Assembly (NCBI GenBank): GCA_008632985.1
Contig: QPGO01000128.1
Location: 1 to 64,000, forward strand
Direction of reading: 5' to 3'
Origin: Psammoneis japonica
Lineage: Eukaryota
Length of the DNA stretch: 64,000 nt
In this document: positions 8,601 to 41,915 of the stretch, piece after piece
How positions within the stretch are numbered: position 1 is the first letter of the stretch
Layout of the letters: every line of letters starts with the position of its first letter
Made by a program: the position numbers and the translations under genes
Notes under the pieces: model-generated
Seen by the model: only the letters and a program-made list of their open reading frames with translations
Databases searched by the model: none
Told to the model about the DNA's origin: nothing

Positions 8601-9950
8601 TCCTCCCCATGGGCACACGCAATCTTTGCAGATGCAGTCATGTGGTCACAAAACATCTGAAGGTGATGAATCAGGGAAACACTTGCCACAGCCTTCTCAA
8701 CTTCTCCCCACCGGACTGCCATGGACTCACCTCCATCTGCTCTTGCCAACTCTGACATCTCTGACTTGTGCATGTGTGGCATCAATGATTGGATGGTCCG
8801 CATGTCCTGTTGCTCTCTGGTCTCACTCGGGAAACCCATGTCAACTTCTGATGGATTCCAAGTGTTGCCTGCAAGCAGGGCTGTGGGCAAATTCTGCTCC
8901 TCCCATTCTGTGGGCACACAAGACTCAAAAGACACCACTGTCCCAGTGGCTTGAAAAGGGATGAAGGCTTCTTCTGTTGGTGAAACACCAAAGCTGTCTT
9001 GGGGATTGCAAGGGTTGTAATTCACTGAGACATTGCATGCCTGCAGCTGCTGATTTGGATCCAAAACATGACATCTGGTCACCCAATGACAAATGTTTGA
9101 TCATTGCATCTGGATCTGTCCAAACAGTGCAACATCGCGCAACTGGAATTTGGTTGACCCATCGCACAATTCCAGGAATGAACTTGCTTCACACATTTCA
9201 TTGGTGGTCTCCATCAATTTCCAGTTTGCTCCTCTGCACAACATGTGTCTGCATGAGTGTCACATTCATTGCAGGACATGTGGCCGGGAACCACATTGAG
9301 ACAATTGTTGCATTCACTGACTGTGCCAATCTCTTGGAGGTTGCCTTCACTTTTTGAAAGCTCTTTGCAATGTTGTTTGGGTGGGGCTTAGACAGCATGA
9401 GCAGCAACAGCAGAGACAATGCAATCGTGTTTGTGTGATGTGCAAAAAAAGCTGAAGCCGCCTTCACCCCACACCATCAGATGTGTGCATGGGCACCACC
9501 ATGTTGACCTCCTTTCTCATTCTCTCATCTGTGTCCACATCCATGACCTGCACTTGCAGCATCGGTTGGTGGTTGTTCCTGCTGTTGTTGCATCAATTTG
9601 TCTGGATTCTGGCACACAACAGCTGCCTGTTGTCCACCGGGGCTGCCACGTCCACATCTGGGACTGTTGCCTTGTCCAGCCATGCACTTGCGGGCTTGCA
9701 CAACATGCACTTGGCCACCATTGAACCTCAGTTGCTGCCATTCATTTGGGGAAAAGGTGTGAGTGGGATCTGCTGTGTCCACACTGTCAATCATTGCACC
9801 CGCACCTCTGCCCTCTGCCACCGAATTGTCCCCTGCCATGCCTCTGGGTTCACGGCCTCCACCACCACCTCCTTGGGGGGGCCTCTGCCACTGCCTCAAG
9901 TTCAGCCCCCACCTGGGCCTCTGTCATGGGACTTGGTTTGGTTTTGCTGT
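5660..9950 (-). mobile_element. Degenerate Ty1/Copia LTR retrotransposon (diatom CoDi-like): gag end, protease, integrase and RNase H; RT core missing
   Basis: Protease-like NECDTHADTCC and IPVARCCTVWTD (about 9100-9270). Integrase GTWFADTL, FADDVGAP, AGEFTG, SEQGRKNQNHAA (8054-8470). WELLVAWNDGSSNWVKLKDIKDSNPI...FAWWVP (6749-7411). RNase H FVDDVNHAGNVVMHRSHSG, SSAFSSELVA, VFCDN, VNCHTVREAVAAG, NLADLLTK (5830-6330). Many stops and frameshifts. LTRs not resolved; possible PPT/LTR start near 5665-5680. Confidence 0.9.
6402..6776 (+). mobile_element. Non-autonomous DNA transposon (MITE) copy 1; left TTAA and TIR present, right TIR missing
   Basis: TTAA at 6398-6401 followed by GGGGGGTCATCCCC. 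The body aligns with 34127-34520 (e.g. TGAATTTCACCGTGCTTCACCGTGGTGAAAAC, AAGCCATAAGTCTGTGACGGAGGTGG). It ends at GGATAA, where Copia sequence resumes. Confidence 0.85.
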
Positions 9951-12900
9951 GGGATCCTCAAAAATTCCCTGGGGTTGCCACCTTTGGCAGTGTTTTTCTG
10001 TGGGAAGCGTGAACTCTTTGTGGGGGGGGGGGGGGGGGAGCACAAGTGATGCTTCGTCACATGCATGCTCAACACATGAATGAAAAACAATGCATTGACA
10101 ATTCCCCATGCTTCCCCTCTTGTACATTTCTGTGTGCTCCTTGTGTCAGCATGTGCAGAACCACACACCAGATGTGTGCAAATCAACAACAATTGAAATC
10201 GACCGACCGCAACAAAAATGGGCAACACACCATGGAGCGTTTGCACCCCAGCTGTGATGGCTTTTGCCAAACAATGACAACACCAGTCAATCTGGTGAAC
10301 AACACCACAATTGACAGTGTAAAATGTAAAATGAACAAAAGCTTGACAGATTGTGTTCAGAAAAATGGTGCACTGGTGGATCATTGCACTTGTTCTTTTG
10401 TTGTGCAGTCACAAATGCAAGCCATGAGGCATCTGCAGCAAAGTCCAAGGCAAAAGCAGAACTGTTTGTGGCCAACAAAAATGTGGTGGATTGAACAGTC
10501 ATGCTTGTTCTTCCAGTTGATGCATCTCATGTGCAGAGTGAAGCGAGTTGTTTGGGTGGGAATCACTCTGTTGTCATGCAGCTGTGGGTGGGGACGCAGT
10601 GGACATCATGCAGAAACGGATTTTCTTGGATCAAAATGAGAGTCATCTCCTGTGGAGATTTGCTCCCCTGGTGGTTGAAGGGTTGAGGTCACATCTTCTA
10701 GTGTGTTGAACTCCAGCTTTGTCATCCTTCCCAGTTGTCCATTTGACATGGGTTGAGCTGAGGGTGCAGTTGCTGGAGTCAAAGGCATGACCAACAAAGA
10801 CGTTGAGGGCAAACAAGCAGCATCGTGGGGATCGCAACAGCAGACTGTGGAAACTCAGCAACAAGCAGCTCCCGACAATTGTTCAAGCACTGCATCTTGG
10901 AAAGAGAAACATCTAGATGTGTTGCCTTTCTAAGTTTGGGCCAAAACCACTGCTGATCCAAACTCGTCATCACCTTCTGCTGCTCATGGTCCTCTCCATG
11001 CTTGACAGTGCGGTCGACCATCCACGAACAAAGGTTGAGTCGACTGCCAAAGATGCTGATCATGCTGACCATGCTGGATGCAAAGCCCCACATTCTCATG
11101 TAAATCACAACTGTCATGTGAGTGTAAAGTTCGCGCTGCCCTGGACAGTCCAGAACTCATCGTCCAAAAAATCATCTAAATGATCCTGCAGCCACTCCAA
11201 GTGCTGCAGAAAACATTCCATGCAACAGTCAGTGGTCCATTTGGCCCCAGCCCAAGCTCTTCCATGACATCCTTGATGGAAATTAAGTCTCTTACATCAG
11301 AGAACACATCATGCCAAAAGGTCTTGACAAAAGTTTGCAACATGTGCTCTTTGATGCCTTGCACCGGTTGGAGTCACACAGTGCTGTTGCGTGGCATGAC
11401 AACAGGCACTTTTGCCCAAACCTGCCGGTCCCTGCAGCACTGACAAAAAGAAAAGTGTGAGAGACTTGGTCGGCCAGCGATTGCGGTTGCCTTTTCGTGC
11501 TTCTCACAGATGCCACAGCACATGCCATTGCGATTTCAGTTGCACAACGTCCATTTTGATTGAGTCTAACCAGGAATGTGTTGCTCACGCAACATTGCCA
11601 TTGGCAACTGCCACAAGTGCTGTGTGTGTTGTTGCCTCTCTTGCGTGCAAATGTCAATGAGTTGTCCCCAGGGCATTGCTGTTGAGCACAGGTTGACTGG
11701 CATTTGAGGCGTCAGACTGTGCTGCTGCTGCATGCTCCCGTGCCTCCACATCATGAATCCATTTGTTCATTCTGTGTGATTTTGGGAACAACACTCAAGA
11801 GCACTTGTGCTGTGTGAGCAAAAAAGAACACACTGTGCGACGAGGCAAGAAAGCAAGTTCTGATTCAACTTGCACGTGTGCACAGTGCTGCGCGCACTTT
11901 GTGCACTCGCCTCTTTTAGAGCAAACACTGCACAACATTGTGGCTTTGATTTTGCAAGATGTCATGGTTCAGGCGGCTCAGTTCTGTCTCATGAAAGCAC
12001 CATTTGGATGACGGCATGTTGCTCAGATGAGATGTGAACAAGTGACGTGTTCCAGCCGCACATGACCCAAATCGTGCACAAAAACAACATTTGCGCGATT
12101 TTTGCACGGTCTCTGACTTACAAACGGTTTTTCACCACCAAAAGCATAGATTTGTTCAAATTTGAATGTTTTGCAACACTGACAAGACTCGTGTGAGTGT
12201 TGCAAAATCATTGTTGTTGTGCCATCAATGTTTTTCATTGCGACAAACAAACGAATCGTAACACAACGGATGATTTTCGGCAAAATTGTTGCCGTTGTTT
12301 GGGTGCCAACCAAGTGTGTCTTTCTATGATGCTGCTTAGCAGGTTTTCTGCTTGCAAAGAAATCTCAGCATAAAATGTGCTGACGCACAATCAGCGTTGA
12401 GTCCACTGAGGAAGTTTGTGATGCATGTCCCATGAGGACTTTAATGCCCCACAAAAAACTGTTTAAATGTTCATGCTCCAGATGCCCACAAAAGCCAATC
12501 CACTTGAACATTTTACATTAAAATGCTTCATACACTAAAAGGCACATAATTTGCATTCAAAATCGATTGTCATTTTGTGTGTCACCTGGGGCTGGAACAC
12601 GTCAAGTCCTTCTCAGACATTTCAAAATCACTTGATTGGGCGGCCGCCAACAGTCACACTTTGGTGCGCCCCGCCTGATTATATGATGGCGGACATGATG
12701 GCATCAAAAGCACAACTCTTTGTGATGATCCTGTGGGTGCGAAAGCGATTTGGTGCGAAACGGTGTGTTTGCTGGTCAGGTGTCGACATTGCTCAATGTC
12801 TCAACCAAATCATTGTTTGAGACAGCCCTTCAGCGTGCTCCACCTAATTAGATGATGGCAGATGCAATGCTTCAAAGGGGCTGTCTGAAACAGTGATTCT

Positions 12901-17666: not shown

Positions 17667-19019
17667 TCAGAATGGTTCACTTTTCTCTAGCTTTGGTGGA
17701 ATTTTGAAATCGCATGGCTCGTACGAGTAGTAGTTTCGTCGGTTTAACAAGACATTGTTGTCGAGACAGTCTCCAACATAGACAGCGCATCGCATCTCTC
17801 CTCCTCGAATATAGTACGCTGCAATACTGAACATGCTCCAACTTACAACAAGACACGTCGAGTCCATGAGCACCACATTTTCCGCGTACGTTTGGATGGT
17901 GGCGTCCAGGACCTGCTGCTCTTGAGCAAACGCGGAAACATCCCGTTTCTCGCCAAACATGCGTTTTCTTGTATTCTTGTCAACATGAAATGGTTTCAGA
18001 TCCACAAGAGCACGAACGTGTGTTTCGTTCTGGATGAAATGCATCTTTTTCTCGTCGTCATCGGCGGCTAGATAGCCAAACTCTGCCAATTTAGAATCTA
18101 TAAAGCGGTGAAAGCATGAACGCAGCACGTCTGGATCTGTCTTTCGATTTCCAATTCTGTTTCTAGAGTTCTGCCATTTGACCATGCTGGAATCTCCGGA
18201 CCGCATGTGTAGGCCTACAAAAGGTACACCTTGTCCAAGCCCAGTCGTTTCCCTGATACCTTTTGCTTTGGACAAGACTCGAGCATCATAGCGAAACAAG
18301 GTCCAATATGCCAAACGAAACATTTCTGCGTCGGAAATGGTGGATGCTGGACTATATCTCTTGCTAGAAAAGTAATTTTTCATTTCATGGCTTGATACAA
18401 TATCGCCCAGTGACTTTCGTCGTGGTCCATTGCAGCTCTGAAGTCTGTAGCCCAATATGTCCACTCTATTCTCGATTGAGGCTTCTCTCCGCATGTCATC
18501 AAACTTCTGCGCTGTTGTTGGAAAGGAAGCATTCCATTGAATGAAATGAGGATTCAATATTTGGTCAAGAGCCACGGGAAAAGGAGCGTCAATCAAGAGA
18601 ACGCGGTTCGTCGCCACTGCCAAGAAAAAGGCCTTGACCATGGCGAGTGCTCGATCTCCCAATCCACCACAGAGCAACTTTTCCGAGCACTCGTAAACTA
18701 TATACCGTACTCCAGGCAAGATTTTGCCATCCTTGATTGCTGAATTGTGGAAGCTAATATAGTCTCGTATCCACGGTTCTGTGGAGAGCGAATCCACGTC
18801 CATACTCGAAAGTTGTGCAATGGTGGAGCCAACAAATACTGAGTCGTCGAAGGAAATGATTGTTTGATTGCCAGTATCATTGGTCTTTATCGACTGATCA
18901 TCCCATTCAAGCTGTCGCGAGACAAGTTCATCTCGTAGCGGTTCGAGGATATTCGCAATCAAAACGACAGAGAGGAGGAGTAACAGCAGTAACAGCTTTG
19001 TTTGACTGACTCTCATCAT
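17667..19019 (-). CDS. Type II membrane glycosyltransferase, fucosyltransferase-like (GT-B)
   Basis: N-terminal poly-Leu anchor; CGGLGDR..MVKAFFLAVATNRVLLID, VGLHMRSGD, YLAADD and SMFS motifs typical of fucosyltransferase-like families. Confidence 0.75.
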   Translation of the reverse strand: MMRVSQTKLLLLLLLLSVVLIANILEPLRDELVSRQLEWDDQSIKTNDTGNQTIISFDDSVFVGSTIAQLSSMDVDSLSTEPWIRDYISFHNSAIKDGKILPGVRYIVYECSEKLLCGGLGDRALAMVKAFFLAVATNRVLLIDAPFPVALDQILNPHFIQWNASFPTTAQKFDDMRREASIENRVDILGYRLQSCNGPRRKSLGDIVSSHEMKNYFSSKRYSPASTISDAEMFRLAYWTLFRYDARVLSKAKGIRETTGLGQGVPFVGLHMRSGDSSMVKWQNSRNRIGNRKTDPDVLRSCFHRFIDSKLAEFGYLAADDDEKKMHFIQNETHVRALVDLKPFHVDKNTRKRMFGEKRDVSAFAQEQQVLDATIQTYAENVVLMDSTCLVVSWSMFSIAAYYIRGGEMRCAVYVGDCLDNNVLLNRRNYYSYEPCDFKIPPKLEKSEPF

Positions 19020-19519
19020 TTCAATCACATTTACTACGTTTCAAAATTTACCACTCCTATTATCCGACTTGAACCGCTTTATTCTCCTCTTCGACACTAC
19101 ACGCCCATCATTTGGAAACAGAAATGCTTGTTGGAAGAAGAACAGTGGTCATCGCCGCCACTGATGCCTGATGCTCTTCGTGAGAAATCGAAATCGATAC
19201 ATCGAAATTGAAAATTTCAAAATGTCTACGATGACCGGACATATGTCCAAAATGACCCAATAAGCGAACTACGAAAAAAGAGAGCTCGTGCCGGTGAGGT
19301 TACACGCAGACGGCCGGCTTTCAAGCTTCTTTACTTTCGCACAGTACCGGCACTGTCTCAAGTCTCAATTTAGGCCCTAGGTTCAAGTATGACGGAAGTG
19401 TAGCTGCTGATGCCGGCAGCTCTACTGTTTTCCTAATTTTTGGTGGAGGGGTGCAGTGCAGCACATGCCAGTCTCTAGAAAGAAGTGGCAATCGAAGCGC
19501 CAAAGTGTCAGCAGCAAGT

Positions 19520-22500
19520 AAAACCAAGAAGTGAAGCTCCCCATGCAGCAAACGAAACCAAGAAGCAATTCATGAAACAGTGGAAATGAAGATTTGTGTG
19601 CACATCCCAAAGTGTCGGTTCAAACAACACCTCCCCACCTGCGGTGCAGTCAGGAGCATGTTGTGGGATGTGATCAAAGAGGCGCTTGGACTGCTGCATC
19701 CACTGGCTGGCAATCATAGTTCCGCAAAGAGACTGACACAGTGAAAGGTCGCCTTCACCAGTCATTCTCTTCTGCATCACTTGACGGCGAGGACAAAACA
19801 CCACTGGAAGATGAGCTCAAGTTGAACCTGCCCGGCTCCATCTTGGCGGCCGCCCTGGCCGGGGCAACAGATGGTCGAGCGGCAGGTTTTCGATCCAAGT
19901 CAGAATCATCATCGCTGTCGCAGAGATCAATCACGAGGCCCTTGTTGGCAGCGTTGTCGAAAATCTTTGTGATCCGGGCCTCGGCGCTGTCACAGCAAGG
20001 ACATCAAGTTCCAAATCCTCCCGCTCAATTCCGAGCAACTCCACCGCGTCTCGCTGCATCTCGGCAAGTCGGTTGAGATGAGGTGGGAGTTTATCACGAC
20101 ATTCTCGGACCTTGCGTTGCATTTCGGGATCAAGCTGGCCGGAAGCCTCACTTTGGTTGTCCCACGCGACGGAGTGCACACTTTCGAAGGTCCTCCACAG
20201 AATCTGCACTGTGGCTGAAATCTTTGAACAAAGCTGCTCAATCAATTCACCAATGGCTTTTAACAACTCCACAGTTGAACTGCTAAACATGGACTGGACG
20301 CTTGAGGCAGCGTGTGAGTTCATGGCATGCTTCATGCGGTCAAACTTGCCTGGGCCACCAGGGACGCTGATGGTGGCAGTGTGGCCACTCTTCATGTGAG
20401 GTTGAATCTTTGGCAACAACGATCGATTGAGAGTTCGTTGACTGGAAGCGGTGGTCTCTTTCATTGACTGAAAAGAAGCCTTGGCAGCTGTCTTGCAGCT
20501 GCGGCTGGCAGCGTTCATCATCTGCGAAATTCTGTCATGAGACAAACCGGCTTCAGCGAGTTCGAACGACAACGATTTGTCGACAGAAGCGCACACAGCC
20601 AAAATTTCAGCTTCGCATTCTCCCAAGAATGCTCTCAATGACAAGTCCATGATCTGCTGCCAATCTGAGCTGAACTCTTTCTCCATGGGATCACAAAGCT
20701 CTTGATTCAGATCGACTTCACCAGCTGATGCCGACGCATGGACGCCGTCGCGGCGAGCTGTTGCAAAGTGGGTAGACCAGTGAAGCCCATTTCTCTGAGG
20801 GCTTCGATGATCGCGGCTTCTCCGGCTTTTTGAGCCCCACGAGGCAAAGGTGGCCATTGCGGCAGCGTTTCCTTTCTTGGCACCCGCCTCAAGAGCAGGG
20901 CGCAGTGCAGACCGAACTTTCATCTCAGCCTTCTCGTGGAATTTTGCATCGGCAGACTTCACTTTCTCATTCAACAGATGCATCTCCTTTTCAAATGCAG
21001 TCTTCAGGTTTCGAGAGGCTCGCCCACTGGGAATGTCTTTTGCATCAGCTGCGACAAGTTTCACTCGATCCAACATGTCACTTGAGGCAGACACAAAAGC
21101 TTCCGTGAATGTCGCCCGTTGTCTTGCAGTGGTGTCGTGGACAAACGCACAGAGTGACGGGATTTGAGCATCAGCCGCGGATGAAAACGTGCTTGGTGGC
21201 CCATCAGTCGATGGCTTGACACCTTGAATCTTGAGGCAGTCGTTGGCACTGATGCAGTGAACATCCATGTCAAAATCGTCGGGAATGGGAGGGGCGTCGG
21301 CGACAACATCGTCCCCACCTTCATCTTCTCCACGAGTTGACTCTTCCAAACCCGCCCGGAAATCATCCTGAAGGCATTTCTTGCTGCACTCGTTTCGCAC
21401 TTCGGCGCATGAGGGCTTGAGGCGAAGCTGCAGTCTACGAGACTGACTGTTCAAACTGTTGAGTTTGTCGCCATTGGCCTCTTTCCACGTGTCAAGTCCT
21501 TTCAAGGTAACACGGAAATGGTCTTTCGAAACCTGGATCGCAGATTCAAGTTTCGCATGGGCTGCGTCATTGTCGACAATCACACCATCACTGTCGACAC
21601 TGCCAGCATCTTCATCTTCTTCAAATTCCTTGAGCTCTTGCTTCGCCTCCTTCCAAGCTTGTCTAGCGCACTCCTTCTCTGCTTTCAAGTCTTCCTCTTC
21701 GGAACGCAAATTTGCAAGTTCCTTGTCAATTGTGGCGAGTTGATCCGAAAGATCACCAATTGTCTCCCATCGCCCAGGCTTCTCCACAGCCACGTCCTGG
21801 TGGTCCCGCATGGTCTCCATGGGTCTGCAATCATCAGTTTGAGTGCAGACAAATGCAACATTGCCGTGCTGACCATCCATCAGCAGCCGTCGCTTGAATT
21901 GTTCTCCCAAAAGCTCCTTTGCGGTTCCATCATCCACAGCCCGTTTGATTGGGGCAACAACCCAGATTTGACTGCAATTCTGCAGGTGCTGTTCCGAGAC
22001 TCTGGCTCTGGCCGTGTTTGCGTCACGCACGCCGGGGAGATCAACGAGACAAGTGCCAGCAGACAGAACTGGCCATGGTCCTTGTAGAACAACCTTTCGA
22101 ATCAAAGGCCAAGTCTGCGGCTCATTTCCATTGCCCTTTCGGCAGATGAATTCGTTGACAGTGGATCTAAATTCGAGTGCCCACTTCTTCTTCTTTCGGC
22201 GAAGTCGTCCACTCATCTTTCCAAATCCTTGCAACAGGGTGGCGGCGGCATCCGTGTCAGCCTGGCCCTTTTCCACAATGATGGAATTGTTCCTGTTCGC
22301 GTCCATCCTGTGAAGCAAGAAGCCTGTGCACTCGCTGATCACGTGAAAGGTCAAAATGCAATTGCTCGCTGCTGCATCCGTGACACCTGGACATCTTTCC
22401 CCGTCCACAGACTTGTTCCATCTTGCTCCATGCAGCTGCTGCTTCGGGTTGGTGCTGCTCATCTGGAACAAGGGCGCAGATTTTCTTTTTGTTGTGAGTG

Positions 22501-25380
22501 CTGCGTTCATCAATCAGAGTGCGAAGCTCATCCAACCACTCGCCATGCTTGATGAACTCGACTTCACCCTTGCAAACAGGAACTTCCTCCTCAATCGCAT
22601 TAGACAGGTCTGAGTTGAAGCGGAGTTCCACAATGGCAGCCGTGCAACCACGAGAGCCAGAAGTCGGCAAAACAGCCGATTCTTGAATCAAGGCATTCAG
22701 CATGCTTGACTTGCCAGCACCTGCATTTCCGAGTGCGCCAATGGTCACATGTGGTGCCGACTGGGCAAGGCTTTGAGCAATCTCGTTAGACCATTCTTGG
22801 CAACAATTCTCAGAACAAAAGAGAGGACTCTCCTTGAGCATCGCGTCGACATCCCTTAGAACACTGCAACTCTTTTCCAGAGCCGAGTCATGCAGTTTGT
22901 GAGCCTTGTTCTCCGCTTCAGTTTCATGAACTGTGATCTTGTCGTTGTTCTCTTCCTCGTCGTCAAGAAGCACAATCTCCATCGGTGACGAGGCGTCCTT
23001 GGCCGGCGAGTTCTCGTTCGCTGGGGACTCTGGTGCCTTTGAAGGCTTCTTGGGGCGTTCCGCAGCTCGGTTGTTGTCATTTGCGTCGTCTGCTCGATTG
23101 TCCTTTGTGCTCTGGCCATCAGAGTCGAAATCGCTGTCGCTGTGGTGATTCATGGATGCATTCGCATCGCACACATTCCCGGCATGAAAAGCAGCGGATG
23201 TTTCGAGAGTCACGCCTTTAAAACTCTCGTTTTCAGCCTCCTCGCCTCTTTCTTCAGACGGCACTTTCTTGGAAGGTTCGAAAGCATCAACCATTTCAAC
23301 GTTGCTTGGTGCAGAGTCAGTCTTGTTGTTGGCACTGTCTTCCTCGGAGGTCTTGTTTGGCAAGACAGTCGGAGGTTCAAAATCCTTCTCCTTCAGATCC
23401 TTGACAGCTTTGGAATCCGTTGAGTTGCTCTCCATGACTCGTTCCAGATTGGGCGTCTCTGGCGCGTCTTCAGGACCATCCACATTGCTTTTGAGGTTGT
23501 TTTCGGCAAGCTGGTTTGGCAAGACCTGTGGAACACTGGTGGGGTTTGCATTCAAAGAGTCATCCTTGCCCTTCTCCGCAGCAGTGAGCCCATCAGATTC
23601 CGGCATCGACTCTTCTGGGTGACTCTCGGCATTGGCACAAGGCTCCTTGGCGTTGTTGGAAGGTGCTGAAACGCTGGGAGCCATGTTCTTGGGTGCGTGG
23701 AAAGACTCTGCAACTTGAGACTGCTCTGTAGAAGGCTCCGTGGCAGCATTTCCGTCTTCTTGACGAGATTTCTTAGCCGCTAAGACTTCATCTTCAGAGG
23801 TGCTGATGACAAGTTTTCGCTTCTTCTCGTGAACACTGATCGTCCTCTCTCCCAGATTCCAACACAAGAGACGATGCTCTTGCTTTCTAGACAAGCGCAC
23901 ACCATCACAACAAAAACAGCACTCGCCCTTGGGAAGCACATCATAGTCAAATTCGTCCTTGATGAGTTGACGCACGTTTGCAAGAACGTGCGACGAATTG
24001 ACTTCGACAAATCCTCGATCGTTGTCGCCAGTGCAAATCACAAAAGGCCTTGTCAATGTCGACACTGAACTGGGAGCATCATGCTCAATGCCAGTGCTGG
24101 CACTGTCACCCATGGTTGTTGCAGTCTCGATCAGAATGAATCATCAATCAATCAACAGCAACACGACGGTTGCCATCATGCAATGAGGTGCGGGCTCATG
24201 CATCGCGTTCATTTTTGAATTCAAGATTTATTTGTTTGGCGCAATCCAGTTTTGAGTCGCGTGAGGAGTCCTCGCCCGACTGCACACAAACTGCAAATTC
24301 ACTCGACGGACCTCGCGCAGGAAAAACCGCAAAAGCACCATGCCAAATGCCAAACGCCAGTGCGGCGACCATCACCAAAGCATCAAAACGACAACAGCAA
24401 CTCTGTCCAATCTCATGACCTCTGTCAGAACAAGATTGATGGGGGTTTTGAACTGGGAAATTCAGACAAAGAAGGCAAACCATCTCGAAAGGAGGAGCGT
24501 CATTTCGGCAAAAAAATGGAAGCAGCAAAAGAAGTCCAGGTGGGAGGAGCCCATTGGCAATGTGGAGCAGGTGTGGAATGTTTTGGTCGATTGTTTGAAT
24601 GAAGGCCCGACATCAGATTTTGTGAGCAAGAACAGCCGACAGGACAACACTTTCTGCCAAATTTTGACGATTTTGTCACAGGCGCGCTCCGCAGTGTGCC
24701 CTTGTGGAGATGTGGACAAGGTTTCAAAGGCCACCCAGGCTGCATCATGGCACCCATGACATGGTTCACTGTCTGTGTGCATTGGGTGTTTGCTTTGAAG
24801 AACTCCAGCAAGCCGACACATTGCACACCTTCAGCTTCTAGAGACTTTGAGTGCAGCCAGAGGAATCCCCCATTTCCATGAAACTTTCACATCTTCCCAC
24901 GCTGTTGGCGCAAGCTCATCGGCAGACTCTCAAGACAGCTGTTTTGCCGCTTGTTCAGCCACTGCACAGATGGGACAAGCACTGGAATCCTGGGACATTT
25001 TGCGTGCATTTGCTTCATTTTGTTGTGATGTTTGAAGCTTCAACCACAGAGAATCATGAGCCCATTGCTGATGATTGTCCGCTTGTCTCCAAAACTGGAA
25101 TCTGCAGCACTCGTGAGCTGAAGGACACACCGACTAAAAAACTCGTTCATCACTTTTCTTGTCCCTGGATCAAAAATGACAGTGAGCCGAGTGTCAGAAA
25201 AAGAACCCCTTCTTCTGTTTTTGAGCTGTGAAACTGTTGCTTGCGGCCTTAGCGTCTTCTTTTCTTTGCATGGAGAGAGGCATCCCGAGATCCTGCTTTG
25301 AGTCACACCGGTGCCGGTGTGAGTCGTCCGTCAACGAACTTGTTTCGGCCAACTTCAACGAGTGGATTGACTCACTGTTC
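19520..25380. other. TpA-erased domain 2, with CpG largely retained in the GTPase gene body
   Basis: About 20 TA by eye across 19.5-24.1 kb while CG is abundant (e.g. GCCGACGCATGGACGCCGTCGCGGCGAG at about 20730). Confidence 0.9.
19931..24113 (-). pseudogene. Dynamin-like (nuclear GTPase SLIP-GC type) GTPase gene, TpA-hypermutated, with frameshifts near 22300 and 19980
   Basis: G1 GNAGAGKSSMLNALI, LPTSGSRGCTA, WPLIRKV, G3 LVDLPGVRDAN, IWVVAPIKRAVDD, FVCTQTDD, VHCISANDC, GLHWSTHFATARRDG. One Tyr in the 618-aa ORF and none in the 860-aa ORF. Confidence 0.85.
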
Positions 25381-25634
25381 GACTCCGTATGTACACACTG
25401 GTACAAATCTGAGGATAAGCTCCTTTAACGTTACGCTGAATATATAGATATGAATATCAATGTCCGTCCAACCGTAATGTCCACAAAATCATTCCATCGA
25501 TTGCAACTCACGTTTTTCGCACAATAGGGCCTAGTGACTTGAGCGTTGCAACTCCAGCTAATTCATCGCTCTCCAGAACTTTTCGTAGTTGCCATAATTT
25601 TCTGAGGCATCGACAATCGAGGCTGCTCAAACCC

Positions 25635-26516
25635 ATGTCTAGAATAGTCGGACTTTTCAGCCGTGCAGGAGGCGCAGTAGTTCTTTTGGGCATTGCCATC
25701 TCGTCGTGTTTGGAAGATGCCGCGGCCATAGTTGAGGACAATGTGGTTATCAAATCGAAATTGAGACGTACCAATAGCCAACGCGTTATCAGTGGTGCCT
25801 TTGATAAATCAGATGTGGTCAAAGCAGTCGAAGATGAGGCTTTCTGGGACCGTTTTCTTGAGTCGCCTGATGGTTCTATGGTTGTCCCCACCATGTCAAC
25901 ACCGGTGCCCACTCCTGCCCCGCCAACACCCGCCCCCGTTGTGACACTCCTACCAACTCCAGAAGCTCCCTCACCGTCGGATGCTCTTGGTGGATTCATT
26001 CAAGACATCTTAGATTGCACAACTGGCATTGACGATCTTTCAAAGCTTTGGCATATTCTCGAACAATATGGCATCACCGACGTTGACAATGTTATCTCCC
26101 TCTTCAATGAAACTCTCCTTGAGAATATTTTCGACCTGTTGAACACTATTGACCTATCTGGCATTGATATTGCGGACCTGTTGAACATTACGGACCTGTC
26201 GAACATTACGGGCCTATCGAATATGACCGATATTTTAAACATTCTCGACGTGTTGGGCACTGTTGACCTATCTGGCTTTGACATTGCGGACCTGTTGAAC
26301 ATTACGGACCTCTCGAACGTTACCGACCTATCGAATATGACCGATATTTTAAACATTCTCGACGCGTTGGGCACTGTTGACCTATCTGTCTTTGACATTG
26401 CGGACCTGTTGAACATTACGGACCTCTCGAACATTACCGACCTATCGAATATCACCGATTTCTTGAACATTACCGACTTTCTGAACGTAAGTGCAGTGAT
26501 GCAAGATGGAAAATAA
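25635..26516 (+). CDS. Predicted secreted protein with a Pro/Thr linker and C-terminal D-L-[SL]-N-[IMV]-T repeats
   Basis: ATG at 25635, signal-like GAVVLLGIAISSC, diatom-type EAFWDRFL segment, PTPAPPTPAP, then 38-aa repeats made of hexapeptides containing N-x-T. Confidence 0.7.
   Translation: MSRIVGLFSRAGGAVVLLGIAISSCLEDAAAIVEDNVVIKSKLRRTNSQRVISGAFDKSDVVKAVEDEAFWDRFLESPDGSMVVPTMSTPVPTPAPPTPAPVVTLLPTPEAPSPSDALGGFIQDILDCTTGIDDLSKLWHILEQYGITDVDNVISLFNETLLENIFDLLNTIDLSGIDIADLLNITDLSNITGLSNMTDILNILDVLGTVDLSGFDIADLLNITDLSNVTDLSNMTDILNILDALGTVDLSVFDIADLLNITDLSNITDLSNITDFLNITDFLNVSAVMQDGK
26133..26490 (+). repeat. Coding tandem repeat with a 114-bp period (about 3 units) built from 18-bp subunits
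   Basis: TGCGGACCTGTTGAACATTACGGACC at 26171, 26285 and 26399. Confidence 0.9.
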
Positions 26517-27502
26517 CAAAGAGCGCCGTACTCCCGACGTTTATACGAGAAGTTCTGCATGTGGATCACCTATGCATCCTTGTCCCAACATTTTGGGATC
26601 TCTGTTGTACTCACTCCACTATAGCCGTAAGACCAGAAGCCCGAGACTTGACTGTCACCGAAGTCCAGCACAATATATAAATGTTTGTCATATTGTTACT
26701 GATTTCATGTAGCCCATCATTGCTGTAGACTAATTCTTTGTTGGTAATCTTAATCTGTAACTGGTGGAACGGCGTGATGACCAAAAGGGCAATCCGCCTT
26801 TTTGTGCCAGGTGGCGGGAAACTGAGTAATCTGCGAAGATGACGGGAACGAACCGGCCTTGCCACGAACGAACCTGGTAGGCCTTGCTGCAAAATCCTGA
26901 GTTACTTTTGCGACAGAATGTGCACTGTCGCAGCATTCTCTCTCCTTTCTACGGTCGCCACTAAATTCCTTTTGAGCAACAGGATCGCGTCGAGATCACA
27001 CTCCAAGCCGTCAAATTATTTTGGATCATCGGGGAGGCAACCGAGACAACCACACAACTCATTCGGTGACATCAAGAATAGCAAATAAAAGCAGCAACTC
27101 GTGACAGGTTCGATTGATAATGTTCTTTCGCGCGCTGGCGCTGATGAGTTCGCGGATTGAAGTTCGCGGATCTGTTATCGAAAGCGATCGTTGACCGTCG
27201 ACGGACGTCAAGCATGATAGTTGGGATCCGCGAACTAATGCCGGTACTGAGTAAACTTTCGAAGCGAAGTCATCGATAAATATTTTCGAGCAAGTTGTGC
27301 GGTTGCCGTTGGCAGGCACGTTCTCTTCGCTTTTTCCCATATCCTGCATCGATTTTCCCTCACAAGAACAGCTTGTCCCGCAGCGAAACCAAAATAATGT
27401 GCTTTCGAGTTGTATTCGAGGATCAAACCATTTGGTTTGTTTCATGATGATTGCTCTGTCTCACAAAATTCAAAACGACGACAAAGTCACAACAACAAAA
27501 AG

Positions 27503-28582
27503 ATGAAAACCGCCATTTACCATCACCTCCTCGTCCTCTCCTCTCTAGTTTGGATCGGATCTCACCGTGCTGTGGCATCCGAAACACCACTGTGTGGTCT
27601 CCCACCGGTGAACAAGCGAAAGGATAAGGGCGTCTTTCTTGCAAAAAAGTGTGGCTTTTCCGACCAGTGGTTCGTGCAAGCTACTGGCGGTCGGCAGGCT
27701 TTGTCCGTCAACGGCACACTCGTGCCAGAGGAAAACGCGAGAGTCGTGGTGAAGAACAAGGACTTCACCATTGATGTGGACAAGAAGGATGTCGATGGTT
27801 TCACCTTCCGTCTCAAAAAGGGAGAAGCCTGCTTCACTCTCAACTCGCCCGACGATGCACCCCTCTATGTTGGTAAGAACCGTGTGCAGCTAGCTTCCAA
27901 GTCAGTCAGGCTCCCTAGCTTCAAGCCGTGTGACGGACCAGTACTCGAATACCTCTTTGATACTTCAAACAACGTCTACAAAGACTCGGGAGAAAAGGGA
28001 TTTGATGGCAAGGCGGGAAGAGGCCGCTATGTGGGGTCCCACGGTCCAGGTTTTGCAGGACGGTCAGTTTATCTTGATGGCAGGGATGACACCATGATTA
28101 TCCCCGACTCTACCAAAATGAACATGAACGAATACACCATGATGGCATGGGTGTGGTACCGCGATACTGGCACAAAAGACTTTGCGTATCAGATCATTCA
28201 GAAAGCGAGTGCCATTTGGCTCAACATCAACGTCGAAACTCGAGCTGTAAACGGAGGTGGTTTCTTCGGTGGTTGCGGTGGAAAGGACTTGTTCAAAGTT
28301 ACAAGCACCAAACCAGTCCCCAAGGAACATTGGACCCACGTTGCTGTCACCAACGACCGTAAGTCATTGAAGATCTACATCAATGGAGACTTGAGTGGAG
28401 AGGCAAAACTGCCGACGAGTAAACCTCACTGCGCCAACCTGGGACCGTTTGTGATTGGCTCCAATTATCGCGAGACGGCGTCCGAATCCAAGGGCTATTT
28501 TGGCGGGTACATGGACTCGGTCCGCGTCTTCGACAAGGATCTCAGTCAAGAGGAAGTCCGTTCCGAAATGTTTCGCAACTAG
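27503..28582 (+). CDS. Secreted LamG/concanavalin A-like lectin-domain protein, copy 1
   Basis: Signal peptide MKTAIYHHLLVLSSLVWIG; LDGRDD, YTMMAWV, WTHVAVT, KIYING, FVIGS, FGGYMDSVRVFDKDLSQEEV (LamG-3 pattern). Confidence 0.85.
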   Translation: MKTAIYHHLLVLSSLVWIGSHRAVASETPLCGLPPVNKRKDKGVFLAKKCGFSDQWFVQATGGRQALSVNGTLVPEENARVVVKNKDFTIDVDKKDVDGFTFRLKKGEACFTLNSPDDAPLYVGKNRVQLASKSVRLPSFKPCDGPVLEYLFDTSNNVYKDSGEKGFDGKAGRGRYVGSHGPGFAGRSVYLDGRDDTMIIPDSTKMNMNEYTMMAWVWYRDTGTKDFAYQIIQKASAIWLNINVETRAVNGGGFFGGCGGKDLFKVTSTKPVPKEHWTHVAVTNDRKSLKIYINGDLSGEAKLPTSKPHCANLGPFVIGSNYRETASESKGYFGGYMDSVRVFDKDLSQEEVRSEMFRN

Positions 28583-28899
28583 TTGTACACGCACAACGGT
28601 GTAAGAAATTGACCATAACAAAATAATGTCCGTTTCGACGAGTATCTTACTTGATTTTTGATTTGGTGGATACAGAATGACTTTCGTTTGTTCATTCTGT
28701 AGTCTGCTCAAATTATTTAGCACCCCATGCTATTTGTAATTGAAATTCCCATCTCTTGTGAGCATTTCGTGGGTTTTGACCTCTTCATTGATACACGCGA
28801 TAATAGCCAACGGATCATAAGCTTGTGCCTGTCATGCACGAAGAAAGGAAAATGAAAAAATAAAAGCGTTCCACCGCACCGTTACAGTGCAGTACGTCC

Positions 28900-31560
28900 G
28901 TCCACAGGCTCGACTGCTCGACGGCTCCATTGTCCTTCTGCCCATCAGAATTTGAGTCGAAATCCTTTTTGCGGCGCTTTGATCCCGTCATTGAGCTGAT
29001 CGCTTTGAAACAGTGCGTGGACCTGTGCACGTTGGAACACCTGCAGTCTGCATCAGAAGTGCTGGGTTGATTGTTGTGGAGATGGTTGTCTCTGCAGATG
29101 CACTGGTTTCCACAGCAGCGGGGCATGCGAGAAAGCAGCTTTTTCACAGCACTCTCTGCACACCAGATTTGTGCACCTCAGACAGCTCACATTTTTGGCC
29201 GCAGTGCAGTTGTGTGAAGAGCACCAGGATGCACTGGTTTCCACTGCAGAGATGTGTGAGAAAATTGAGTTTTCATGGCATTTGCCAGATTTGCCTCAGA
29301 CAGCAGCTCACAGCTTCAGCTTTGGTGCAGCTGTGTGAGAGGCACTCTCCGGCCAAATGTCAGTGTGTGTGGCACTCACACTGGTGGCTCCTCTCTGCTT
29401 GCTGCTCTTTTGCCTGAAAAAACTTCCCAAATGAGGGGACATTGAAGCAAGCTTTGCAGAAGGCAGCCAAGGTGAGCATTGTCATGAAAGGAGCTTTGAA
29501 ATTGGCGAGCTTTAACCCACGCTTCCAGCTGTGCCCAAGGTGAGTGTTGCACACAAGTCTCTGTCAAGCACCCAAGCTGCAATGAGCCAGAAAAGGAAAG
29601 AGGCTGCAATTCTCTTGCAACAGTGGGCAAAACCATTGTGATGAACAAAGTGCGCCACAAGCCAAGCAGAAGACTGGGCTGAGCAGGGGTTGCAAGATTT
29701 GCAACTTGATGCATTGTTGCTTCTCTGACAGCCAGCACTGTTTGCACAACAGGCTTGCTGCAACTTCTTTTGGGCTTGTTTGTTTTGAGTTGCAACTCCA
29801 TGTGTCTGTGATCCCCTGGACCTCTGAAGTGCACCAGCCAGCCAGCCAGCCTTGAGTTGTCACTTGGGGCAGGCTCTGCTGGAGCAAAAGGTGCCAGCTC
29901 TCACACTGGTGGGGAGACAAAAATGACCTGGTGTTTCAAGTTTCGAGTGCTTGATCTTGCAAGAGATGCGCACTTGTGAACAAAACCCATGTGATGCCTG
30001 TCAACTTTCCTCTTACAGAAATGTGTTGAAAGCTGAGGGGAGGGCATCACCACCACATGTTTGCAAGAGTGGCAGATTCCATTGTCTGTGTCATCTCTTT
30101 CATGTGCAGAGGTGCCCTCTGGTGAGTTGTGGCTTTGCAAAAAGGCTGTCACAATGCAGCAACACACTTGATGTCAACTTCACTGAAAACATTTTTGTTG
30201 AGGGGTTGCAAGATTTGCAACTTGGTGCATTGTTTTTGCTTCTCTGACAGCACTGCTTGCACAACAGGCTTGCCACAATTTCTTTGGGCTGCTTGTTTTG
30301 AGTTGCAACTTGGCTTCTCTGCACCACCCCAGACCTTTGAAGTGTGCCAGCCAGCCAGCCAGCCTTGAGCTGTCTTTTGGATCAGGCTCTGCTGGAGCAA
30401 AAGATGTCCAGCTCTCACACTGGGGAGACAAAAATGACCTGATGTTTCAAGTTTCAAACCCTCCATCCCATGAGCAAGAGTGTGCATTTGTGAACAAAAA
30501 CCCATGTGATGCATGCCAACTTCCTCTCAATGAAATGTGTTGGCAGCTGGGGGAGGGCCTCACCACCACATGTTTGCAAGAGTGGCAGACTCCACTGCCT
30601 GTGTCATCTCTTTTGTGCTCAGGTGCCCCTGGTGAGTTGCTTCTCTTTGCAGAAGAGCTGTCACAATGTAGCAACACACTTGATGTCAACTTCTCTGAAG
30701 ACATTTGTCAAGCTTTGAGGCTTCAAAAGGAATTTTCAAGGTTAAAACCCAACTGACCAGGAGGCGCAACACCCAGCTTTGATGACCGGAGAAGGGCAGT
30801 GCACTGAAAAGAAGCACGCATGCTTCAGATGTTTCCAGGTTGGCACAAAGCCAACAGCCACTCACAGTGCTTGAAAAGTTGAGTTCTTGTTTTTAGAGAG
30901 AGTTGCTCCTTTTGGTGCTGGCAATGATCAAGGACATCGCTGGGTGACACCAATGGTGGGTTGGCTGCTGCTGGGGATCTGGGTGGCACAATGTGTTTGA
31001 CCAGAGTTGCTTGAAGCTGTTGTTGAGTGGGTCTGAAATTCAACAATGACCCTTGCCAAAATTTCAATTTGTGAGATTTCTGTGAACAAAGAACAATTGC
31101 AAAAGTGCAACAAGGGGAGTGGCGATGCATTTTCAGCCCCCCCCCAGGCAGGGCCACATGTGTGGCTCCGGCCCCCTCACAATTCCTCAAAAATGTTGCT
31201 GCAAAAATGTCAGATGGCAAACAAACCAACAACTGCCAGCTGAAAAAGGGGCAACTTGTGATTGAACAAATGAATCACCCATGCTTGAAGCCTCGTGCAG
31301 CTCAAGGTGGCCCAGAGGAGGAGGCGGGTGCAGTGGTGGTTTTCAACACAAAAAGAGCCATGCGTTCAGCAACCAGTTCCACAAGTCAGCAACTTGAAGT
31401 CACTTGTTGGAACATGCTGCATCACCCTGACATGAAGATCCCAGTAAGATCCAGCAGAGGCAGCAATGCAAAATTCCAAACAATGTTGCAACAACTCGTG
31501 TGACTCGGATCGAGGGTCAGTCGAGATGCAGCTTTGTGTGCTTTCGCGCGAAAGGTTCGC
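28900..31560. other. TpA-erased domain 3, lying between the two LamG paralogs
   Basis: Very few TA dinucleotides, TG/CA-rich, contains an internal tandem duplication. Confidence 0.88.
29685..30706. repeat. Diverged direct tandem duplication, period about 516 bp
   Basis: AGGGGTTGCAAGATTTGCAACTT at 29685 and 30201; shared GGGGAGACAAAAATGACCTG and CACTTGATGTCAACTTC. Confidence 0.9.
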
Positions 31561-31898
31561 GGACTATTTACAGCACAGTGTCGTGGATGCGGTTCGCGGG
31601 TTGAAGTTTTATAAAAGTTTATCCGCGAACCATACTGCAACAGCCAATGCCGGTATTGAACAAAAGCAGAAGCGAATCATCATCCGCATTGTTGTTTTCG
31701 TGCAAATAATGACTTTACCATTAGCAAGCATGTGTCTCTACAAGCATCCTTGCCCACACAAGAACAGCTTGTCCCGCAGCGAAACCAAAATAATGTGCTT
31801 TCGAGTTGCATTCGAGGATCAAATCATTTGGTTTGACTCATGATGATTGCTCTGTCTCACAAAATTCAAAACGACAACAAAGTCGAAACAACAAGAAG

Positions 31899-32978
31899 AT
31901 GAAAACCGCCATTTACCATCACCTCCTCGTCCTCTCCTCTCTAGTTTGGATCGGATCTCACCGTGTTGTGGCATCCGAAACACCACTGTGTGGTCTCCCG
32001 CCGCTCAACAAGCGAAAGGATAAGGGCGTCTTTCTTACGAAAAAGTGCGGCTTTTCTGACCAGTGGTTCGTGCAAGCTGCTGGCGGTCGACAGGCTTTAT
32101 CCGTCAATGGCACACTCGTGCCAGAGGAAAACGCAAGAGTCGTGGTGAAGAACAAGGACTTTACCATTAATGCGAAGAAGAAGGATGTAGCTGGTTTCGA
32201 CTTCCGTCTCAAAAAGGGAGAGGTCTGCTTCACTCTCAACTCACCCGACGACGTACCCCTTTATGTTGGTAAGAACCGTGTGCGGCTTTCTTCCAAGTCA
32301 GTCAGGCTCCCTAGCTTCAAACCGTGTGACGGACCAGTGCTCGAATACCTCTTTGACACTTCAAACAATATCTACAAAGACTCGGGAGAAAAGGGACTTG
32401 ATGGCAAGGCAGGAAGAGGCCGCTATGTGGGGTCCCACAGTCCAGGTTTTGCAGGACGGTCAGTTTCTCTTGATGGTAGGGATGACACTATAATTATCCC
32501 CGACTCTACCAAGATGAACATGAACGAATACACCATGATGGCATGGGTGTGGTACCGTGATACTGGCACAAAAGACTTTGCGTATCAGATCATTGAGAAA
32601 TCGAGTGCTATTTGGCTCAACATCAACAGCAAAACCCGAGCGGTAAACGGAGGTGGCTTCTTCGGTGGTTGCGGTAAAAATTTCTTGTCCAAAGTTACAA
32701 GCACCAAACCAGTCCCCAAGGAACATTGGACCCACGTTGCTGTCACCAACGACCGTAAGTCGTTGAAGATCTACATCAATGGAGACTTGAGTGGAGAGAC
32801 AACGCTGCCGACGAGTAAACCTCATTGCGCCAACCTGGGACCGTTTGTGATTGGCTCCCATTATTTCGAGACGGAGTCCGAATCTAAGGGCTACTTTGGC
32901 GGGTACATGGACTCGGTCCGCGTCTACGACGAGGGCCTCAGTCAAGAGGAAGTCCGTTCCGAAATGTTTCGTAACTAG
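31899..32978 (+). CDS. Secreted LamG/concanavalin A-like lectin-domain protein, copy 2 (paralog offset 4396 bp)
   Basis: Same length as copy 1 with a highly similar protein. Homology extends about 140 bp upstream and 30 bp downstream. Confidence 0.85.
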   Translation: MKTAIYHHLLVLSSLVWIGSHRVVASETPLCGLPPLNKRKDKGVFLTKKCGFSDQWFVQAAGGRQALSVNGTLVPEENARVVVKNKDFTINAKKKDVAGFDFRLKKGEVCFTLNSPDDVPLYVGKNRVRLSSKSVRLPSFKPCDGPVLEYLFDTSNNIYKDSGEKGLDGKAGRGRYVGSHSPGFAGRSVSLDGRDDTIIIPDSTKMNMNEYTMMAWVWYRDTGTKDFAYQIIEKSSAIWLNINSKTRAVNGGGFFGGCGKNFLSKVTSTKPVPKEHWTHVAVTNDRKSLKIYINGDLSGETTLPTSKPHCANLGPFVIGSHYFETESESKGYFGGYMDSVRVYDEGLSQEEVRSEMFRN

Positions 32979-33478
32979 TTGTGCACGCACAACGGTGTGA
33001 GAAATGATGGAGCAAGATGAGATAACCGTTTAGCCGGCGACGAGTCTTACCTTAGGATTTTCATTTGCCCATTCTTCACTCAGCTCTTGAGTTAATCTTC
33101 GTTCTGTTTGCACAGAGTATCTCAAATTTATCGTATTCCCGATCTTGCATGCATTCCATATGCCGTTGGTTGTAGCTTGAGAAAGTCACACAGGACATGC
33201 TCTCCAATATCACGATCTTGTCTTGACGCCATTGTTGCCTTCATACACTTTGAAAGCTCGCCTTTTTCCTCCTGACGTTCGACAAGTCACTCTACCAAAA
33301 CTATTGGAGCCCATGAAGATCCCACGAGCTCTCATTATCTCTTTCGCATTTCATCCACGTGCAATTCAACAAGAGTCTACTACAAGTTACTTACTCTTCT
33401 GCTGGTTGAATCAACTCTCATTCTTGCTATACACAGATTCGCCGCTCTCTCGGTGGTACCCCATTTCATGCCCTTACA

Positions 33479-34520: not shown

Positions 34521-35049
34521 TTAATACCGTGCGTGAAAGAGGTGCCATAGCCGTAAGCCCGGTACATTGTCTGTTCTTCAACCCACTACACGTTAAATAC
34601 ATACCACGACTTACGTTAAGATCCCAGGCGCGGACAGACATTCTTTCCGAAGCGGTGGATTTTTGGTTTGGAGTTGATAGATGATGGATGCGCCGACCCA
34701 CAATCCGCCTTGTTGGAGCTGTTCTCCATCGTTTTCGTTCATTGAAGACATGGATGTTACTTTTGGGAGATCGTACCATTGGCTGAGGTCCTTGGTTTGG
34801 TGAGAACAAACGGAGTTGTCGTTGTGAAGAAAGCAAGTTTTTCTGTTGTCTCAGCCATTTCTGAGCAACAAAACCCACAATCGGATGTTCATTCATTCAT
34901 TTCACCTCCTCTGTTCAATGCCATTGCTTGTGTCGAACTAACACAGTTAAAGAAGGCATCCCATGTCTTGGGTGTGATGTGGGTGGGGGCTGTGGCGAGA
35001 AACATCTTTCTCTCGCATTGGACAAGAAACACCAAAAAACATGGAATTG

Positions 35050-38890: not shown

Positions 38891-38892
38891 CA

Positions 38893-38926
<34 letters not shown>

Positions 38927-38928
38927 TG

Positions 38929-38960
<32 letters not shown>

Positions 38961-39001
38961 AACAGCAGCAACAACAGCAACAGCAGCAACAACAGCAACA
39001 G

Positions 39002-39033
<32 letters not shown>

Positions 39034-39064
39034 ACAACAACAACAACAACAACAACAGCAGCAG
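38891..39064 (+). repeat. (CAG/CAA)n microsatellite, about 58 triplets
   Basis: Read directly; flanked on both sides by AAGTTTGCAAGCATGGC. Confidence 0.97.
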
Positions 39065-41813: not shown

Positions 41814-41915
41814 TCGGGAACTCAATTGAAGTGTCATCTGACCAAAGGCATTTTAATTTGCTGCATGGTGAAGAGCAATGCCTTTGGTCAGATGACACTT
41901 CAATTGATTTCCCGA
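41814..41915. repeat. Near-perfect hairpin: 39-bp arms (one mismatch) and a 24-nt loop
   Basis: TCGGGAACTCAATTGAAGTGTCATCTGACCAAAGGCATT versus AATGCCTTTGGTCAGATGACACTTCAATTGATTTCCCGA. Confidence 0.93.

Follow-up and report, generated by a model that had tools for sequence, protein, structure and literature searches.

The first 64,000 nucleotides of contig QPGO01000128.1 of Psammoneis japonica (GenBank assembly GCA_008632985.1), the whole stretch analysed here and called the window below, carry on the minus strand, from 24113 to 19758, a gene for a SLIP-GC/NUGGC-like GTPase of the dynamin family, which extends over 1,452 codons in three frame segments and has lost almost all of its TA dinucleotides. 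The gene copy here has become a pseudogene; its GTPase family is conserved in diatoms. We consider it likely that this dead gene copy was made by a domain-limited hypermutation specific for TpA, which outpaced both CpG decay and ordinary drift. In the proposed mechanism almost every 5'-TA-3' within a sharp-edged domain of 5.9 kb, comprising the transcription unit and flanking intergenic DNA, would have been converted to TG or CA, which equals A>G at TpA on either of the two strands. Conversion of TAY codons to TGY (Cys) or CAY (His) would remove every conserved Tyr codon, xTA codons and the junctions between a codon ending in T and one starting with A would be altered too, and the gene copy would be killed quickly, with slow CpG decay coming after. 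The homology of the gene, the polarity of the changes, the action on both strands, the confinement to one block and the relative extent reached by each class of change are shown by the sequence itself.

The near-total loss of TA that the original prediction had reported for positions 19931-24113 is borne out by the counts: 18 TA are present versus 239.8 ± 11.4 expected from 2,000 mononucleotide shuffles (minimum 199), an observed/expected ratio (o/e) of 0.08. The whole TA-poor block, in which the gene is accompanied by 0.28 kb of downstream and 1.27 kb of upstream DNA, contains 24 TA versus 351 ± 14 in shuffles (TA o/e 0.06-0.07). TA occurs about every 250 bp within the block and about every 30 bp in its flanks, and each edge is sharp, with the transition taking place within 100-200 bp. 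The block and the parts of the gene are as follows (open reading frame, ORF).

19477..25387, no strand: TA-poor block of 5,911 bp (gene, 0.28 kb downstream, 1.27 kb upstream)
24114..25387, no strand: upstream intergenic DNA, TA-poor too, ending shortly before a plus-strand neighbour ORF that starts at 25440
22302..24113, minus strand: coding segment 1, 604 codons, ATG at 24113
24071-23808, minus strand: conserved N-terminal domain, in segment 1
23943..23945, minus strand: the sole remaining Tyr codon, TAT, residue 57, in DEFDYD
segment 1, between the N-terminal domain and the P-loop: long non-conserved acidic/Ser-rich stretch
segment 1, minus strand: first half of Dynamin_N
22730-22707, minus strand: G1/P-loop GNAGAGKS, in segment 1
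22289..22301, minus strand: frameshift 1, 13 nt in the window versus 5 residues (15 nt) in homologues, placed by tblastn with homologues P0009, P0028, P0031 and P0005
19991..22300, minus strand: coding segment 2, 770 codons, with the second half of the GTPase domain, a coiled-coil region and DUF7605
22042-22031, minus strand: G3 motif DLPG, in segment 2
21844-21833, minus strand: G4-like motif TQTD, in segment 2
19990..19992, minus strand: frameshift 2, a 1-nt loss, placed with the tails of P0003, P0004, P0005, P0009 and P0028
19755..19991, minus strand: coding segment 3, 78 codons, conserved C-terminal tail (…KGLVIDLCDSDDD…), TGA stop at 19757-19755

The depletion is strongest where it changes the protein. 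Across codon positions 1-2 the gene has 0.7 TA per 1,000 codons versus 30.3 in a set of nine normal ORFs (3,695 codons) from elsewhere in the window; the values are 2.8 versus 27.6 for positions 2-3 and 9.0 versus 42.5 for positions 3-1. Depletion is thus strongest at the position that alters the amino acid, contrary to the pattern expected under purifying selection. The same gene in 32 metagenomic relatives has a TA o/e of 0.18-1.14 (median about 0.48) versus 0.08 in the window, and only two short TA-poor stretches are found in the 189,207 bases of the relatives' contigs. On the relative contig L029 a TA-poor stretch of 691 bp (839-1529, TA o/e 0.1, CG 1.05) lies upstream of the matched part of the gene.

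An untargeted, genome-wide bias might clear TA from unconstrained DNA, the block then being an old pseudogene lying in neutral sequence, and such a bias would agree with the TA-poor state of 59% of the window, most of it without recognisable coding content. It is, however, difficult to reconcile with the adjoining non-coding DNA at 19041-19476, which keeps its TA (o/e 0.61), with the other ORF-free stretches of the window (0.38-0.65) or with the sharp block edges. Since, moreover, the divergence of the gene outside TA matches that of intact homologues (see below), the gene is not old neutral sequence, and we regard the untargeted bias as improbable.

The identity of the gene is given by Pfam Dynamin_N (PF00350), which is split over both long ORFs (31.5 bits in the first, cut-off 27; 20.8 bits for the second half in the second), and by DUF7605 (PF24564) in the second ORF (44.3 bits, cut-off 27, E 2.4e-11). 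This domain pair and the G1, G3 and G4 motifs are shared with the SLIP-GC/NUGGC nuclear GTPases, from which the window copy differs in being frameshifted twice and in lacking all 13 conserved Tyr. The GTPase motifs were rightly described as retained, GNAGAGKS, DLPG and TQTD being all present, and the window gene keeps 136 of the 136 columns that are invariant among 18 aligned sequences (P0002 and 17 homologues). The tblastn alignments with P0009, P0016, P0028 and P0031 are collinear over the full length, from the N-terminal domain through the GTPase domain and DUF7605 to the tail. Among 5.8 billion proteins searched there were 156 homologues, with a best identity of 60-61%; the collection is without this species, and the best match of a neighbouring gene in it reaches only 37%. 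The named entries among the top 100 homologues are from diatoms only (Skeletonema, Cyclotella, Fistulifera, Seminavis, Thalassiosira and Pseudo-nitzschia), and several relatives are labelled by their sources as "nuclear GTPase, germinal center associated" or "SLIP-GC". In humans SLIP-GC keeps AID-induced damage in check, which we take to be a coincidence here. The family can be multi-copy, as on the relative contig L002, where two copies of the GTPase domain (418-763 and 6369-6685) lie about 5.9 kb apart; no second GTPase copy was found within the 64-kb window. The neighbouring genes of the window have no match in the loci of the 32 metagenomic relatives.

The two long ORFs described in the original prediction are there, both on the minus strand, at 22257..24140 (618 aa from the ATG at 24113) and 19931..22513 (860 aa), and its estimate of about two frameshifts can be made exact: alignment with homologues by tblastn gives two, one between 22302 and 22288 and one at about 19991. 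The first switches from the frame of the first ORF to that of the second, and since 13 nt stand there against 15 nt in homologues, no intron fits. At the second, the ungapped alignment ending in LELDVLAV runs on as DSAEARITK in another frame. The claim that internal stops are lacking holds literally, with zero in-frame stops in all three segments, but it is not evidence of intactness: because TA-free sequence cannot contain TAA or TAG, open frames overstate it. TGA makes up 194 of the 223 stop codons counted over the region's six frames. As a process acting on TpA deletes TAA and TAG and makes no in-frame stop, long ORFs persist on both strands. The uninterrupted reading frame of a functional family member is absent here, given the two frameshifts and the replacement of all 13 conserved Tyr.

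The loss of Tyr is the clearest trace left in the protein. The window gene encodes 1 Tyr in 1,452 codons, as rare as had been noted, versus 1.0-2.9% in 57 homologues. In all eight peptides in which Cys or His had been suspected of replacing Tyr, the consensus of the 18 aligned sequences has Tyr; only in DVHCISANDCLK does the consensus Tyr correspond to the Cys of NDCLK and not to the His. For a wider comparison the three-segment translation was aligned with 100 homologues, and columns with at least 60% agreement among at least 25 homologues were taken as conserved, giving 481 columns. In the window not one of the 13 conserved-Tyr columns has kept its Tyr (6 have Cys, 6 His and 1 Phe), while 40 functional homologues, each left out in turn, lose 0-4 out of 6-13 Tyr columns. 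Orthologues do not share the Cys and His: among up to 100 homologues, Tyr accounts for 67-100% of the residues at the 13 columns. In the comparison at DNA level, retention of the P0009 Tyr ranges from 9 of 16 to 9 of 9 among the 32 metagenomic relatives and is 0 of 15 in the window (6 Cys, 8 His, 1 Phe).

Since the conserved protein family fixes the ancestral state, the spectrum of changes can be polarised from the locus itself. The window mismatches 72 of the 481 conserved columns (15.0%), with 4.8-19.5% in the 40 leave-one-out homologues. When each mismatch is assigned to the single-nucleotide step explaining it, the 72 are divided into TA>TG (13.3), TA>CA (9), CpG-type (10), other transitions (13.7), transversions (19) and multi-step changes (7). 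Equal frequency of the classes was looked for and was not found: without the 22.3 TA-type steps about 50 of 481 (10.4%) are left, which is the homologue background, and the non-TA classes are not elevated in the region (10.4% versus 4.8-19.5% in the 40 intact homologues). All 12 Tyr losses that are single-step transitions are TA>TG or TA>CA. The cross-codon events predicted for a dinucleotide target are seen as well, as Thr>Ala and Ile>Val replacements with the first-position A following a T, which account for 8 of the TA>TG events; the TA class also takes in xTA codons (Leu>Ser, Leu>Pro, Val>Ala and Ile>Met). Over the best-conserved 500 nt, aligned with 25 relatives, a site with TA in a given relative has TA in 29%, CA in 12% and TG in 11% of comparisons with other relatives; for the window the values at such sites are 0.9, 27.5 and 19.7% (CA or TG together 47%). 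This excess of CA and TG at the TA sites of relatives accounts for about 85% of the missing TA.

The same data bear on the possibility that the segment was TA-poor by origin and was acquired from a foreign genome or a virus, an idea encouraged by the viral nature of the hypermutated regions of Bigelowiella natans, as reported in a preprint (bioRxiv 10.64898/2026.01.13.699255). The family is, however, conserved over diatoms with a normal Tyr content, none of the 13 pattern matches among IMG/VR viral contigs encodes a GTPase relative, and the loss of invariant Tyr is damage and not native composition; a foreign origin is extremely improbable. Pfam found no viral or transposon domain in the GTPase block and no domain at all in ORFs of the upstream DNA at 24114..25387. 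The earlier description of the target as a cellular gene can therefore be upheld at the level of the family, which is diatom-wide and has no relative in the viral contigs.

Replacement of Tyr by Cys (A>G on the coding strand) and by His (T>C) occurs in the ratio 6:6, so both DNA strands were affected and a retro-copied edited mRNA is excluded as the source of this ratio. A processed pseudogene derived from an ADAR-type hyper-edited transcript would suit the TpA context insofar as ADAR prefers a 5' U, according to the same preprint (bioRxiv 10.64898/2026.01.13.699255). Editing of RNA on one strand should, however, give A>G on the coding strand only, that is Tyr>Cys; the TA-poor state also reaches into intergenic DNA, 1.27 kb upstream of the ATG, and no terminal direct or inverted repeats and no poly(A) tract were found at the block edges. 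We hold such a retro-copy to be highly improbable.

Along the minus strand the 23 polarised TA events (22736-20086) fall into 7 runs of like type (permutation p = 0.022), and the Tyr events alone into 4 runs (p = 0.067), which hints at single events converting several neighbouring sites on one strand. The TA that is left is also unevenly distributed. In all TA-poor stretches of the window taken together, 82 of 109 residual TA stand in TAA/TTA contexts versus 432 of 1,018 TA in normal DNA, and ATAT is found at 0 of 109 versus 7.3%. If the residual TA are survivors this suggests the target preference TAT > TAC > TAG > TAA, an order that fails if they are new mutations. With such a preference Tyr codons would be the best substrates.

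The agent would most simply be a DNA adenine deaminase with a preference for 5'-T (A>I>G), and a silenced chromatin domain or a guide may mark its target. We put adenine deamination forward as the chemistry only tentatively. The same end products could come from thymine oxidation of the TET/JBP type at TpA, with 5-hydroxymethyluracil (5hmU) or 5-formyluracil (5fU) mispairing with G and T>C arising on either strand. TA being self-complementary, T>C and A>G at TpA give identical CA and TG products, and the data do not separate the two. In dinoflagellates 5hmU is concentrated at TpA, and 5-formyluracil is mutagenic. No evidence of such a base in diatoms was met in this analysis, however, and the only paper on the signature proposes, as a hypothesis, an ADAT2-like adenine deaminase; thymine oxidation seems a possible but unlikely route.

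Three further candidates were rejected: an RNA-edited "cryptogene" restored in the transcript, on account of the two frameshifts and the loss of TA in non-coding DNA too; GC-biased gene conversion, which is not TA-specific; and signatures of UV or of mismatch repair, which have the wrong context and are not regional.

The plentiful CpG of the gene was seen correctly, with a CG o/e of 0.81 in 19931-24113 and 0.73-0.81 in the block; the other TA-free blocks of the window have 0.22-0.55. As about 90% of TA is gone while CG o/e stands at 0.78-0.81, TA loss and CpG decay are separable. The original prediction had placed TA loss apart from CpG decay and ahead of it, and the TA o/e of 0.08 with CpG kept, unlike in the other TA-free blocks, agrees with this. 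The end states give a rough extent of about 88-93% of TA gone and at most about 20% of CpG gone, with other sites at background. TA loss can accordingly be called fast, as had been proposed, in the sense of a relative rate derived from end states and not of a measured one. TA loss would have come before the frameshifts and CpG decay.

DNA run X1 contains 94% of the sampled words, at a word depth of 61-66 that is not read as copy number. Its k-mer contigs, including one of 5,559 nt at depth 66, reproduce the block together with both frameshifts, with 11 substitutions and no indels. Eight of these substitutions are CpG<>TpG/CpA and none involves TA; about 2.1 kb of compared flanks are without any substitution. 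CpG is thus the class now varying in the block. Deamination of 5-methylcytosine also enriches CpA and TpG, marks the other TA-free blocks and accounts for 8 of the 11 polymorphic block sites, but it cannot remove TpA. In time the block will probably come to resemble the window's other blocks, which are TA-free and poor in CpG. A second run, X2, from the same sample and of unrecorded kind, gives contigs over the flanking genes (18500-19150 and 25420-26500) and none over the block, to which we attach no weight either way. Among the runs listed as containing the stretch there was no RNA run.

The reads also bear on a sequencing or assembly artefact, in which base modification at TpA within silenced chromatin would lead to systematic miscalls, the real gene being intact with its Tyr. 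The platform is unrecorded, and the one run in which the stretch is present may have been the source of the assembly. On the other side, the X1 k-mer contigs give the same sequence with both frameshifts, and a near-complete conversion over 5.9 kb, with CA and TG at different sites, is not expected of a strand-symmetric miscall; besides, the older blocks show CpG decay and their diverged repeats differ by CA versus TG. We give very little credence to such an artefact and go on with hypermutation as the preferred explanation.

The GTPase block is one of several in the window, the others being the following.

3688-12146, 28862-31568, 34775-52129 and 53550-56424: four further TA-free blocks, TA o/e 0.03-0.07, CA/TG o/e about 1.8-1.9

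Together with the GTPase block and a 1-kb WD40 stretch they bring the TA-poor total to 37,869 of 64,000 bases (59%). Seven diverged repeat pairs lie inside TA-free blocks (for example 35057-35343 with 35814-36102, and 38222-38647 with 39092-39502), and CA versus TG is the commonest adjacent double difference between their copies, with 52 cases over some 2 kb, as against 2 and 0 in two repeat pairs from normal DNA. From these differences it follows that the copies were converted independently after duplication, although an ancestral CG would give the same pattern. This would speak for some connection between the trigger and repeats. Two Laminin_G_3 ORFs (27354-28609 and 31750-33005, 394 aa each) flank a TA-free block and are 93% identical over 1,256 bp. 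Their TA is normal (o/e 0.42 and 0.49), and their 88 differences comprise 18 TA-type, 21 CpG-type and 49 other.

A Pfam scan of 103 ORFs of at least 110 aa, including those in the flanks of the GTPase block, and of 140 ORFs of 70-109 aa found no transposon or viral domain and no reverse transcriptase, integrase or transposase; no tRNA genes were found in the mobile-element check. The 140 shorter ORFs have no recognisable domain, and the longer 103 have only a weak NUBPL/ParA-like match and two chance-level ones. The NUBPL/ParA-like P-loop NTPase fragments (46321-47000, minus strand, and 50873-51338; best 26.4 bits, cut-off 27.1) lie in an old TA-free block, the stretch being duplicated about 4 kb away with about 76% identity, and may be another hypermutated gene of cellular type. 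A row for SNAD1, an AID/APOBEC-like deaminase, at 53999-54460 (minus strand) in a TA-free block (E 0.0083, 16.5 bits versus a cut-off of 25, with no single stretch above it) is most likely due to chance, and a creatininase match (E 0.0097) is at chance level. At 1-3662 (minus strand) there is a STAND-type gene with an NPHP3_N/NACHT-like NTPase part, where TA is normal (0.53), and a WD40 part built of tandem 126-bp units of about 83% identity, with a TA o/e of 0.14 and a CG o/e of 1.24. This WD40 array has little excess of CA and TG, unlike the other TA-poor blocks.

Several points weigh against the explanation that we prefer. The process would be deduced from the end state at a single polarisable locus, and the enzyme and whatever defines its target are likewise putative. 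TA-type steps cover only 22.3 of the 72 mismatches, next to 19 transversions and 7 multi-step changes, a number at the level of intact homologues. The CG o/e of the gene (0.81) is about the median of the relatives' genes (0.82), and the view that CpG decay has begun draws only on the 10 CpG-type replacements and the 8 polymorphic sites, so that decay would at most have just begun. Run X1 represents one sample or study with an unrecorded library type and may be the source of the assembly, so that it offers weak independent support against a basecalling artefact. The older TA-free blocks are without a recognisable transposon or viral domain, so the usual target class is not readable from them. 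As the 93%-identical Laminin_G_3 pair is not TA-poor, duplication alone is no trigger.

The closest known system is that of B. natans, for which the comparison below follows the accessible part of the preprint of Mettrop et al. (bioRxiv 10.64898/2026.01.13.699255). In mutation-accumulation lines of this organism two integrated viral regions had gained 231 single-nucleotide mutations, of which 230 were A>G or T>C transitions, all at TpA; this hypermutation occurs de novo in the DNA of a nucleocytoplasmic large DNA virus (NCLDV) and of virophages, at a rate about 1000x the background. The genome of B. natans also has clusters depleted of TpA and enriched in CpA and TpG, and the authors of the preprint propose an ADAT2-like deaminase. 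Both systems involve TpA only, with TpG and CpA as products on both strands, and act in discrete regions with ordinary rates outside. In the window the mutations of the gene fall on TpA and yield TpG or CpA, and they are confined to 19477-25387 with normal flanks; a viral or foreign target is missing, the gene family being diatom-wide. The differences from B. natans concern the lineage (a chlorarachniophyte of the Rhizaria versus a diatom-type genome), the degree of saturation (3.3% TpA, Rho 0.45, in the NCLDV region versus an o/e of 0.03-0.08), the target (proven viral targets versus a member of a host gene family for which no viral relatives were found) and the kind of evidence (a rate measured de novo versus an end state alone). 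The preprint, in the same part, draws no link to CpG decay and does not mention diatoms, and a literature search for TpA loss in diatoms found no report. Relative to that text the signature in the window is identical to that of B. natans, and what is new is the lineage, the saturation, the target in a host family and the link to CpG decay.

Repeat-induced point mutation (RIP) of ascomycete fungi is likewise a regional, saturating transition hypermutation with dinucleotide specificity, which inactivates genes irreversibly and leaves sharply bounded blocks. It runs in the opposite direction, however: RIP turns CpA/TpG into TpA and creates many stops, whereas here TpA is turned into CpA/TpG and stops are erased. 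The TpA excess and many stops typical of RIP are accordingly not seen (TA o/e 0.08, CA 1.53, TG 1.26, no in-frame stop), and RIP is triggered by duplication, whereas the 93%-identical pair of 1.26 kb in the window is untouched.

The locus extends the signature of TpA hypermutation, for which the 2026 preprint supplies the one precedent, to a diatom-type genome. It indicates that the process can reach saturation, with a TA o/e of 0.03-0.08 over 59% of a 64-kb window, that a host-family gene can be destroyed by it, and that events are ordered, TA loss coming first and CpG decay later. Hypermutated DNA of this kind keeps long frames in all six phases and may be called coding by gene finders, for which a Tyr-free translation is a simple flag. 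If a TpA-specific DNA deaminase acts here, it would be of interest for base editing. Diatoms, like chlorarachniophytes, may possess a domain-targeted silencing by DNA editing, a mirror image of RIP that rapidly erases TpA to saturation (A>G on either strand, with TAT/TAC favoured over TAA), introduces no in-frame stops, precedes cytosine methylation and CpG decay and hits conserved host genes as well as repeats; we regard this broader proposal as close to evenly balanced between true and false. If it is true of both Stramenopiles and Rhizaria, it would imply an old, SAR-wide genome-defence enzyme.

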